From Oligoflexia bacterium (lineage in GTDB: Bacteria; Bdellovibrionota; Bacteriovoracia; Bacteriovoracales; Bacteriovoracaceae), in the NCBI GenBank assembly GCA_015231955.1, contig JADGAN010000027.1, positions 7,582-71,581 of the forward strand: DNA of 64,000 nucleotides. Direction: 5' to 3'. Under the pieces are notes generated by a model. That model did not search any database and had not been told where the DNA came from. It saw only the letters and a program-made list of their open reading frames with translations. Numbering within the stretch: position 1 is the stretch's first letter; each line of letters starts with the position of its first letter. Below, piece by piece: positions 36,143-38,068 of the stretch. The translations under genes and the position numbers were made by a program.

Positions 36143-38068
36143 CTATTTTTTATCTATGTTCTTATCCATAACGGTTGAAAGTTTTCGATAACGAATTTGC
36201 GTAATACCATTCACCGTATTTTGAATCATTTTTAAAATTATTTTCGAGTGAGTACTCGTGTTCCTAGGATTTTTGGCCAAATCTAATATCGATCGGCCAT
36301 CTGCTGCTATTGCTTTGGCATTGGCCTTTTGCTCTAAAAGATATTGAACGACTTCCATGTGTCCCTCAAATACTGCGAAAGATAGCGGCGTAAATCCAAG
36401 AAGGTTTTTTTTCTCGATGTTTGCGCCCTTCTCTACCAAGTATTTGACGATTTCTAGGTGACCCTTGGCCGCCGCTCGAACTAGTGGTGTCGCTCCTTGC
36501 TTGTTTGCTTGCTCTAGGTTGGCCCCTTTCTCCACCAGAACTTTTACACTCTCCAGTTGTCCATCGTTAGCTGCTATATTAAGCGGGGTCCAACCATTGT
36601 TATCAGCAAGCTCAATCCTTGCTCCTTTTTCCAAGAGCAGTTCCACTATTTTTTTGTTTCCGCGAGAGGCCGCTAACATGAGAGGAGTCTCCCCAATCAA
36701 ATCCCCAGAGTTTATATTGGCCTTTTGCTCTAAAAAATATTGAACGATTTCCGTGTGGCCTCTATATGCCGCTTGAGCGAGTGGCGTAAATCCATCCTTG
36801 TTTGCCTGATCTGTTTTTGCCCCTTTCTCCACCAGATATTTTACAATTTCCAAATGTCCCTGCTCGATCGCATTGTCAAGTGGGGTCCAACCCTCTTTAT
36901 CAACAAGATCAATCCTTGCTCCTTTTTCCAAGAGCAGTTCCACTATTTTTTTGTTCCCATAATGGGCCGCTGCCGTCAAGGGAGTCATTCCTAATTTCGC
37001 GTATTGATTGGTATCAATTCCATCGTTTAAATACTCCTCAACTTTTTTAACATCACCTGAGGCCATTGCCTTGATAAATGCTGTTGGTCCTTTCCAAACA
37101 TCGACTTGGCGATAAGGCCTTTTATCATCCCTTATTTGGAGATAGATTGGCCAAATGGTTTCAACTCTTATTCCCTTGTCTATGTCATCAGCGAGAACTT
37201 CCATCTTTATTCCATTCGGATCAATCAGTTCATAGGTTGTTATCTTGACCTCCCTATTTAAAGCGTCTTTGCAGCTATAAGAGTTAGTGCCATAAATGTT
37301 TGTAATATGATCAGGGATGGAGATGGTTACCAATTCTGCTGTGGATTTTAGTTGCTGATAGATCGATTGAAAAATAGTCTGGTCTTTCTCTGGTATAATC
37401 TCGTTGATCGTAAAGGAAGGAATGTCTGTGTATTCACATTTTTTTTGTATATTGACCACTTTCTCCCATAATTGCGAAAATAGTTCTTCTTGTTGTTGAG
37501 AGGAACAAGCGGATTCACGTTTCTTTAATATCTCTGTGACTATATCTTTATGCGAGATCAGTTCATTTGAACACAATACCAACTGATGTTCTTGGGCAAT
37601 ATTGAGAAGAAAATTCTCCATGCGCCCTCCTTCTTGGTATGCTTTTTTTTCAAAATTTCCAGCACAAATAGCACTGCTTAAAGAGTATTTTGTACGATTA
37701 GCATGAGCAAGGTCAATCAGTGAGTTGTTCTTTTTGTTGATCGCGTACTCTAGCGCAAAAAGAGATGCGGCCGCATAACAGGCACCAAATTTACCTTGAG
37801 TCGTCATCTGGTTCAATTCTGGTTTTGGTGAAAGCACGATGGATCCGTCTTCTTCTTTTTTACAAGTATAAGGAGGTCTTGGAAATTTAGAGCGACAATT
37901 TGTTTGGAATGCTAAATTATTGATGCCCAGGGACTCTTGGCCATTTAAAGGGACAGAATTTTTCAAGATGACATCAAATCCTGGATATTTTTCATGGATG
38001 CAATCTTCAGCAAAAGCAGAACAAAAAATCCCCATAAAAACAATGATTATACTACTTTTTTTTTTCAT
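36143..38068 (-). CDS. secreted papain-like (clan CA) cysteine-peptidase-like domain fused to about 9 ankyrin repeats (paralog A)
   Basis: Signal peptide MKKKSSIIIVFMGIFCSAFA. TQGKFGACYAAAS places Gln 6 residues before Cys, as in papain. Candidate His in DHITNIYG. C-terminal repeats of the G-TPL--A---GH-EIV--LLE-GA type. Confidence 0.8.
   Translation of the reverse strand: MKKKSSIIIVFMGIFCSAFAEDCIHEKYPGFDVILKNSVPLNGQESLGINNLAFQTNCRSKFPRPPYTCKKEEDGSIVLSPKPELNQMTTQGKFGACYAAASLFALEYAINKKNNSLIDLAHANRTKYSLSSAICAGNFEKKAYQEGGRMENFLLNIAQEHQLVLCSNELISHKDIVTEILKKRESACSSQQQEELFSQLWEKVVNIQKKCEYTDIPSFTINEIIPEKDQTIFQSIYQQLKSTAELVTISIPDHITNIYGTNSYSCKDALNREVKITTYELIDPNGIKMEVLADDIDKGIRVETIWPIYLQIRDDKRPYRQVDVWKGPTAFIKAMASGDVKKVEEYLNDGIDTNQYAKLGMTPLTAAAHYGNKKIVELLLEKGARIDLVDKEGWTPLDNAIEQGHLEIVKYLVEKGAKTDQANKDGFTPLAQAAYRGHTEIVQYFLEQKANINSGDLIGETPLMLAASRGNKKIVELLLEKGARIELADNNGWTPLNIAANDGQLESVKVLVEKGANLEQANKQGATPLVRAAAKGHLEIVKYLVEKGANIEKKNLLGFTPLSFAVFEGHMEVVQYLLEQKANAKAIAADGRSILDLAKNPRNTSTHSKIILKMIQNTVNGITQIRYRKLSTVMDKNIDKK

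Follow-up and report, generated by a model that had tools for sequence, protein, structure and literature searches.

Introduction

Bacterial proteins that join a cysteine protease to ankyrin repeats have been described before. LegA7 of Legionella pneumophila (AnkG/AnkZ, Lpg0403) consists of an N-terminal cysteine protease, an inter-domain region, and C-terminal ankyrin repeats (PMC10983931; PMC11696984); its function requires a Cys/His/Asn triad as well as the inter-domain stretch and the proximal repeats, and its protease has been assigned to a "bacterial cysteine protease family" with triads compared to those of type III effectors (PMC10983931). Large modular toxins of Rickettsia and Wolbachia, for example, pLbAR_38, contain OTU and CE-clan protease domains in addition to ankyrin repeats (PMC6133264). 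Another link between ankyrin repeats and hydrolases comes from Bdellovibrio bacteriovorus, where an ankyrin-type immunity protein inhibits peptidoglycan DD-endopeptidases (Lambert et al. 2015, cited in PMC8289219). Here, we analyze three genes, paralogs A, B, and C, in a 64,000-nt stretch of an Oligoflexia bacterium genome (GCA_015231955.1, contig JADGAN010000027.1, positions 7,582 to 71,581; hereafter, the window). Based on profile comparisons and a structural model, we consider it fairly probable that their products are cysteine endopeptidases exported by the general secretory (Sec) pathway, the ankyrin arm of which selects the target.

Family membership of the three paralogs

Together, the three genes span 21.1 kb and encode proteins of a common build, in which a hydrophobic leader is followed by an N-domain of ∼300 to 370 aa and then by ankyrin repeats. 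Their coordinates in the initial annotation of this DNA exactly match those in the open reading frame (ORF) list (Table 1), and a profile scan revealed no copies beyond these three in the window. In the NCBI annotation, paralog A is simply an "ankyrin repeat domain-containing protein."

Pairwise comparison of the N-domains by BLASTP yielded E 7e-5 for A and C, over the Q...C...EGG stretch, 0.053 for A and B, and 0.18 for B and C; the N-domains of A or C alone produced no matches in a word-indexed search of 5.8 billion clusters. A MAFFT alignment of all three nevertheless lines up Q-x3-G-x-C, L-E, E-G-G, and H...G...C, and an exhaustive search with a three-paralog profile of 1.84 billion representatives (one per 50%-identity cluster) retrieved 29 proteins at E ≤ 1e-3, that is, A, B, C, and 26 others. 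Only two new proteins were gained by a word-indexed search with the family profile, in which P0029 was the best match and P0031 the weakest. Most members show the typical build of hydrophobic leader, domain, and subsequent ankyrin repeats. Four of them form a subfamily with paralog A, with 36 to 47% identity in the subfamily alignment, whereas members outside this subfamily are only 13 to 20% identical to A.

Despite this divergence, an alignment of 28 sequences displays one Cys, one His, the Gly after the His, one Pro, and one Leu as invariant, with the Gln and a second Cys conserved in ≥90%. The family signature reads QGxxGTCY...GG...PxYN...HAxxIxGxRKxCC...NS(Y/W)G...GW and includes a family-specific R-K-x-C-C motif after the His strand. 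A leave-out profile of 20 members, from which the A, B, and C subfamilies had been excluded, recovered C at 3e-32, B at 1e-25, and A at 3e-14, so that the membership of all three does not depend on what they themselves contribute to the profile. This recovery, together with the invariance of Cys and His, places the Q/C/H motifs beyond chance.

Every member with a named organism is labeled "MAG: Oligoflexia bacterium" (MAG, metagenome-assembled genome), the remainder being from metagenome contigs, and several paralogs among the named members occur within the same Oligoflexia MAG series. A scan of species-representative genomes with the A-subfamily alignment returned a single locus, in a sister Oligoflexia MAG; synteny of this locus with the window was absent, as were additional copies. 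Judged by sequence, A, B, and C are thus paralogs in a small, lineage-restricted family that is found almost only in Oligoflexia.

Predicted fold of the N-domain

Searches with single sequences offered a first glimpse of what this domain might be. Against PDB sequences, paralog A alone matched cathepsin K in phmmer with a marginal E of 0.005, with QGKFGACYAAAS aligned to QGQCGSCWAFSS; C had no matches, and B irrelevant ones only. The family profile of 28 sequences, in contrast, produced 171 PDB sequence matches, the best being cathepsin L at E 7.5e-7, and the best 60 of the 171 all belong to the papain family (C1). The C1 matches listed comprise cathepsins L, K, S, and V, SERA5, falcipain-2, ficin, ananain, aminopeptidase C, and DPPI, each of them matched in two stretches that follow the order of the enzyme, namely, the Cys helix with GG and then the His strand with NSWG. 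The leave-out profile likewise matches cathepsin L (4e-6) and cathepsin K (2e-4).

The same register emerged from hhalign comparison with papain, cathepsin L, and cathepsin K, the cathepsin stretches of which agree with fragments in the search output. The N-terminal half aligned with 96% probability and E 4.7e-9, placing Q19, C25, and G65-G66 in register, and the C-terminal half with 83.8% and E 8e-6, placing H159 and N175-S-W-G in register with the family His and NS(W/Y)G. Individually, 8 of the 28 N-domains touch Pfam Peptidase_C1 (best E 5e-8), and the other recurrent Pfam matches are limited to the clan-CA families C2, C39, and C1_2. Pfam and NCBIfam searches with the whole A, B, and C proteins reported ankyrin matches only, plus a Peptidase_C1 match below threshold for A.

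In structure prediction with AlphaFold2, the three paralogs alone gave a predicted local distance difference test score (pLDDT) of 33.7, and the N-domain of A with the 28-sequence alignment a pLDDT of 90.6 and a predicted template modeling score (pTM) of 0.91. Compared to the PDB with Foldseek, the latter model had 93 matches at E ≤ 1e-3. The best 50 were all C1 peptidases with a probability of 1.00, over ∼270 aligned columns and with target-normalized template modeling (TM) scores of 0.43 to 0.62, mostly 0.55 to 0.62; no NlpC/P60, transglutaminase, or YopJ-type enzyme was among them. Identity of A to the C1 enzymes was ∼10 to 14%.

According to model and profiles, the N-domain is a two-lobed papain fold (MEROPS clan CA, C1-like), with its motifs in the same order as in papain: first an oxyanion-hole Gln, then a Cys with which the central helix begins, then a His that opens a strand, and last an Asn (Asp in the A subfamily) that closes the following strand. 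A papain-type fold with Gln, Cys, and His had been proposed in the initial annotation; profile searches, hhalign register, and model plus Foldseek all favor it, and the refuting outcome, a domain without a peptidase fold or with Q/C/H out of register, did not occur. Between the lobes, the alignment and the model of A indicate a helical insert, which is largest in C. As for a prodomain of the I29 type, Pfam found no Inhibitor_I29 match in full-length A, B, or C, and the distance from leader to Gln in these proteins is only ∼35 to 70 residues.

Table 1. Features of the three paralogs, with positions in the window
Feature	Position	Strand	Details and basis
Paralog A, whole gene (signal peptide, C1-like peptidase domain, ankyrin array)	36143-38068	-	641 aa; ORF list, Pfam ankyrin, family membership
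A, predicted Sec signal peptide, aa 1-20 (MKKKSSIIIVFMGIFCSAFA, followed by EDC)	38009-38068	-	Rule-based check
A, predicted C1-like peptidase domain, aa 21-326	37091-38008	-	AlphaFold2 model, Foldseek, phmmer versus cathepsin K (E 0.005), core-family HMM (hidden Markov model; 3e-14)
A, QGKFGAC, aa 91-97, predicted oxyanion-hole Gln91 and nucleophile Cys97 (papain Q19/C25)	37778-37798	-	Family conservation, hhalign
A, QEGGR, Gly147-Gly148 as papain G65-G66 (substrate-cleft backbone)	37622-37636	-	hhalign; invariant in A subfamily
A, HITNIYG, predicted catalytic His254	37289-37309	-	His and Gly invariant (n = 28); family hhalign on papain H159
A, DPNG, Asp283 at the position of papain Asn175 (NSWG)	37211-37222	-	Family hhalign; invariant in A subfamily
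A, ankyrin array, aa 327-625 (N-cap, 8 canonical 33-aa repeats, C-cap)	36194-37090	-	Pfam Ank families, E 1e-61 to 1e-64
Paralog B, whole gene	45732-47456	+	574 aa; ORF list, Pfam, core-family HMM E 1e-25
B, QGSTGTC, aa 72-78 (Q72/C78)	45945-45965	+	
B, HAITLVG, His245	46464-46484	+	
B, NSWD, aa 270	46539-46550	+	
B, ankyrin repeats	from ~46680	+	Pfam
Paralog C, whole gene	54841-57252	-	803 aa; ORF list, Pfam, core-family HMM E 3e-32
C, QDRIGTC, aa 69-75 (Q69/C75)	57028-57048	-	
C, GG	56896-56910	-	
C, HEVAITG, His296	56347-56367	-	
C, NSWG, aa 326	56266-56277	-	
C, degenerate ankyrin region	~54844-56136	-	Pfam

Putative catalytic motifs

We were able to locate all motifs quoted in the initial annotation, that is, Q-x5-C and the His in all three paralogs, NSWD in B, and NSWG in C. 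It was also right in that no paralog diverges more in the His/Asn region than A, which has DPNG versus NSWG and the C-terminal half of which is, alone, not significant against papain. As the third residue of the site, most family members have Asn, with Asp instead in P0022 and throughout the A subfamily; in the family hhalign, the row of A places L-I-D-P-N-G on I-K-N-S-W-G. In the model of A, a long β-strand opens with the invariant His, at mature residue 234, and the Asp of DPNG ends the second strand of a hairpin, an arrangement that we take to be that of papain H159 and N175. For the A subfamily, we regard this Asp as a plausible functional substitute for Asn175, though not as the C1 signature residue.

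Leaders and ankyrin arrays

Leaders were judged by rule, from their n, h, and c regions and from small residues at positions -3 and -1. The leader of A has three positive charges in the n-region, an h-region with a Kyte-Doolittle hydropathy of 3.18, and an AFA cleavage motif, and that of C (ending in LPVAIKA before EEC) is a classical Sec signal peptide; neither contains a lipobox. We also considered A as a lipoprotein and rejected this, there being no lipobox before Cys16. In B, the n-region of the leader is long and basic, and the cleavage site is weaker and less canonical. Of the Sec signals that had been claimed for all three proteins, those of A and C thus stand as classical, and that of B is weaker and atypical. 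Hydrophobic leaders are present in nearly all full-length family members, and the 28-sequence alignment also contains conserved noncatalytic cysteines, which would be compatible with disulfides and hence with export. No type IV secretion system (T4SS) genes or other specialized secretion apparatus were found within the window. As ankyrin proteins are often assumed to need specialized secretion systems, the Sec leaders of A, B, and C would provide a counter-example.

Ankyrin repeats behind the N-domain, the other element of the proposed architecture, were confirmed by Pfam in all three proteins. Ank, Ank_2, Ank_3, Ank_4, and Ank_5 score far over the Pfam cut-offs in each, and Ank_4, Ank_2, and Ank reach E 1e-58 to 1e-64 for A and B and 1.7e-27 for C. 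Eight TPLH-type motifs occur in A, with an exact 33-residue spacing 7 times over and with additional caps, and seven in B; the repeats of C are degenerate. At the nucleotide level, a unit of three repeats is duplicated within the array of A (259 nt per copy, at 297-nt spacing and with 75% identity), and a second pair of direct repeats measures 146 nt at 396-nt spacing; the array thus grew by segmental duplication.

Among 32 family members scanned with Pfam, 24 have ankyrin repeats and one has leucine-rich repeats (LRRs) in their place. The latter, P0019 (MBF0361471.1), is encoded by a sister Oligoflexia MAG and carries N-terminal LRRs before the C1-like domain and no ankyrin repeats after it; judging by its domain content, one repeat-type binding module is swapped for another. 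Two members from JGI metagenomes, P0029 and P0031 (453 and 457 aa; L004), have the C1-like domain without ankyrin repeats and instead end in a C-terminal region of ∼100 aa without a Pfam match. On a 1.68-Mb metagenome contig (L003), a separate 489-aa ankyrin-repeat protein is encoded at positions 7353 to 8822, with the family member P0014 two genes upstream. Where domain and array are fused, the junction is conserved in the 28-sequence alignment, and neither the alignment nor the model of A displays an obvious flexible linker.

Proposed function and alternative readings

How might such proteins work? If they are indeed exported peptidases addressed by their repeats, the leader would be cleaved after export, leaving the protein in the periplasm or passing it further out. 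The peptidase domain would cleave proteins via Cys97, His254, and Asp283 (numbering of A), and the concave face of the ankyrin array would bind a particular protein and hold it at the peptidase cleft, that is, act as an exosite or targeting arm. Diverged paralogs with arrays differing in number and sequence would have different targets, which most plausibly would be proteins of other cells (prey bacteria, eukaryotic grazers, or hosts) or envelope proteins. Sequence and model combined, we think that the family proteins probably cut specific target proteins outside the cytoplasm. A bolder version of the same idea, which we put forward tentatively and regard as possible rather than likely, sees them as a modular arsenal of target-addressed secreted proteases, in which each ankyrin array, or the LRRs in one relative, specifies a different prey or eukaryotic-host protein and is combined with a shared, stripped-down papain-type domain and delivery by Sec. 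If true, export would proceed via Sec, perhaps followed by the type II secretion system or outer-membrane vesicles, and not via type III secretion systems or T4SS. It would also represent a repeat-guided effector strategy independent of that of Legionella-type pathogens and possibly tied to predation.

Several observations weigh against an exported, target-selecting peptidase. Each of the three proteins misses the Pfam Peptidase_C1 cut-off of 20.7 bits, with 13 to 14.5 bits for A and no match for B or C. In the Foldseek comparison, root mean square deviations of 5.5 to 8 Å and query-normalized TM scores of ∼0.40 to 0.46 are unfavorable, both of which we attribute to the inserts. The GG motif is missing from paralog B, which has ESAK at this position, and from its orthologue. 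In hhalign, the His/Asp half of the A subfamily is not significant against papain when used alone, and the register of the HMM alignment in the His region of A differs from that of MAFFT, so that we assign His254 and Asp283 from the MAFFT alignment and the model. Further points are the atypical leader of B and the neighboring genes in the window, which provide no functional hint.

Among competing explanations, the ankyrin array might be a cis-inhibitor that serves self-protection, covering the active site until the protein has reached its destination or is cleaved. Such an array would be the fused equivalent of the separate Bdellovibrio immunity protein that blocks the bacterium's own peptidoglycan endopeptidases, an ankyrin-based protein documented in the same phylum (PMC8289219). 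The lack of an I29 prodomain that could confer latency and the rigid, conserved junction would both fit. Nonetheless, we consider this reading unlikely: arrays of 7 to 9 repeats, the number of which varies among paralogs, are better suited to target recognition than to one fixed cleft, the member with N-terminal LRRs instead is hard to square with a specific inhibitor, and the ankyrin repeats of LegA7 act positively (PMC10983931). A rather unlikely option is that the domain has the papain fold and a Cys-His center yet performs other chemistry, as an amidase, deamidase, transglutaminase, acyltransferase, or peptidoglycan hydrolase, similar to other clan-CA relatives. Cysteine-protease-like effector domains often prove to be transferases (PMC10983931, discussion), and both the extreme divergence from C1 seen with Foldseek and the large insert, along with loss of GG in B, would leave room for it. 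What speaks for proteolysis is the retention of specific C1 signatures, that is, the Gln six residues before the Cys, GG, PxYN, and NSWG-GW, and the fact that the best 50 structural matches are C1 endopeptidases throughout.

Replacement of Asn in A, loss of GG in B, and a Gly before the Cys that is not invariant might also be read as signs of pseudo-peptidases, catalytically dead scaffolds in which both domains only bind partners. We deem this very improbable, as the family retains Cys and His in every sequence and Gln in nearly all, at only 13 to 20% identity to A outside the A subfamily, which would be unexpected without catalysis, and Asp in place of Asn is a functional alternative in clan CA. 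Finally, the weak pairwise BLASTP scores of A with B and of B with C, and the empty single-sequence searches, are what one would see if the Q...C and H motifs were chance look-alikes in N-domains unrelated to peptidases or to each other. Significance at the family level, a confident model, and C1 structures alone among the best 50 matches lead us to reject this idea.

Genomic surroundings

Genes around and between the paralogs in the window are for two-component systems, an amine oxidase, a FecR-domain protein, a protein of the endonuclease/exonuclease/phosphatase (EEP) family, an M48 peptidase, and a chemotaxis receptor; further neighbors are phosphoglucose isomerase (PGI), CTP synthase, S-adenosylhomocysteine hydrolase, and several ORFs without Pfam match. 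We discarded an operon or system context, since A, B, and C are scattered over both strands and have unrelated genes between them. A mobile-element origin was rejected as well: tblastn of the A N-domain against plasmid and phage collections was empty, the flanking genes are ordinary chromosomal ones, and no mobile-element signature was seen. The PGI gene has an exact match on contig JADFZY010000001.1 of assembly GCA_015232255.1. Relative to the database copies on that contig, the window sequences differ by three residues in A (I24T, V510I, and Q524H), for which an exact-sequence look-up accordingly returned no match, and two in C (S4L and R246K); paralog B and the PGI gene are identical to theirs.

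The ATG of paralog B at 45732 is preceded, 8 nt upstream, by a GAGGAGG Shine-Dalgarno sequence. Between the upstream 805-aa ORF and paralog B lies a perfect 16-bp inverted repeat (GGGGCCAGCACACTTT ... AAAGTGTGCTGGCCCC; 45652 to 45707), which is likely the terminator of the upstream gene. A longer reading frame of B from a GTG at 45693 was rejected because this codon sits inside the hairpin and the ATG has the strong ribosome binding site.

Four of the ORFs without Pfam match lie between the paralogs, at 40161 to 41633 (minus strand, 490 aa), 41732 to 42487 (plus strand, 251 aa), 43219 to 45636 (plus strand, 805 aa), and 49332 to 50687 (plus strand, 451 aa). At least the 251-aa and 490-aa ORFs have hydrophobic, leader-like N termini, and these ORFs may encode further exported proteins. 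The FecR-domain protein (47614 to 49116, minus strand) ends in a long tail in which Pro, Thr, and Gln/Glu are abundant, with a PPPPPPPPP run and poly-Thr stretches. Close to the start of the window, at 1172 to 2236 on the plus strand, we noted a Fic/DOC-family protein (Pfam Fic, E 9e-19). The region from 14000 to 24000 has a G+C content of 31 to 34%, compared to 40 to 47% on either side, and may be an island obtained by horizontal transfer. Besides small ORFs without Pfam match, it contains genes for a GNAT acetyltransferase, a methyltransferase, two hybrid histidine kinases, and an Asp/Glu racemase.

Comparison with known systems

In public annotation, members of this family are called "ankyrin repeat domain-containing protein" or "hypothetical protein" only, and the catalytic half has therefore gone unnoticed. 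If recognized as proposed here, the domain would represent a distinct, divergent papain branch or a new clan-CA family, with an almost obligatory fusion to repeat-type binding domains. With 29 clusters at 50% identity among 1.84 billion, the family is a rare one, and it is concentrated in Oligoflexia MAGs, where several paralogs occur per genome. It is therefore a candidate lifestyle marker and might help to learn how these bacteria, which are poorly known and often predators or associated with hosts, attack or manipulate other cells. It might also become a tool, being a natural scaffold with an ankyrin-steered protease that would be relevant to engineered proteolysis guided by designed ankyrin repeat proteins (DARPins).

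The initial annotation knew of no characterized family of this form that combines a protease with ankyrin repeats. This needs to be corrected, since LegA7 exists (PMC10983931), albeit with an unrelated peptidase domain and export by a T4SS. Its protease domain is not of the C1 type and is unrelated to the N-domains of A, B, and C. LegA7 has no Sec leader, is a substrate of the Dot/Icm T4SS, and acts inside eukaryotic cells, whereas A, B, and C carry Sec-type leaders. With the LegA7-type profile NF043022 (T4SS_AnkG) of NCBIfam, the three proteins scored 57 to 97 bits versus an equivalog cut-off of 500, and only over profile positions ∼290 to 455, the ankyrin part. By analogy, LegA7 may still serve as a precedent for the protease-plus-ankyrin mechanism that we propose.

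The toxins of Rickettsia and Wolbachia also unite a cysteine protease and ankyrin repeats in one bacterial protein. They differ from A, B, and C in being giant, multidomain, cytosolic proteins of obligate intracellular bacteria, with deubiquitinase-like OTU/CE-clan domains rather than a papain C1-like one, and in having no Sec leader. A described fusion of a C1-like peptidase with ankyrin repeats was not found in the searchable literature, which did contain one unrelated CE-clan case (PMC6133264).

Sec signals on ankyrin proteins had been regarded as unusual in the initial annotation; yet Sec-exported ankyrin proteins are already known in the phylum, for example, the Bdellovibrio immunity protein (PMC8289219). 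The latter resembles A, B, and C in consisting of ankyrin repeats, in belonging to the same phylum, in acting outside the cytoplasm, and in being paired with a hydrolase. It is, however, a small, separate, unfused protein without a peptidase domain of its own.

With regard to the catalytic half, the papain family C1 (cathepsins L, K, and S, papain, falcipain, and ficin; in bacteria, xylellain, PDB 3ois) shares with the predicted domain the two-lobed fold and the order and context of Gln19, Cys25, Gly65-Gly66, His159, and Asn175-Ser-Trp-Gly, as well as PxYN and a secretory signal peptide. The family described here is set apart from it by the low identity, scores below the Pfam threshold, the absence of I29, the inter-lobe insert, R-K-x-C-C, the replacement of Asn175 by Asp in the A subfamily, and the ankyrin fusion. 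Cysteine-protease-plus-ankyrin proteins as such were already known. By its fold and motifs, the domain belongs with the papain family as a very divergent subgroup; whether MEROPS would rank it within C1 or set up a new clan-CA family for it is a matter of thresholds, which the individual sequences miss.

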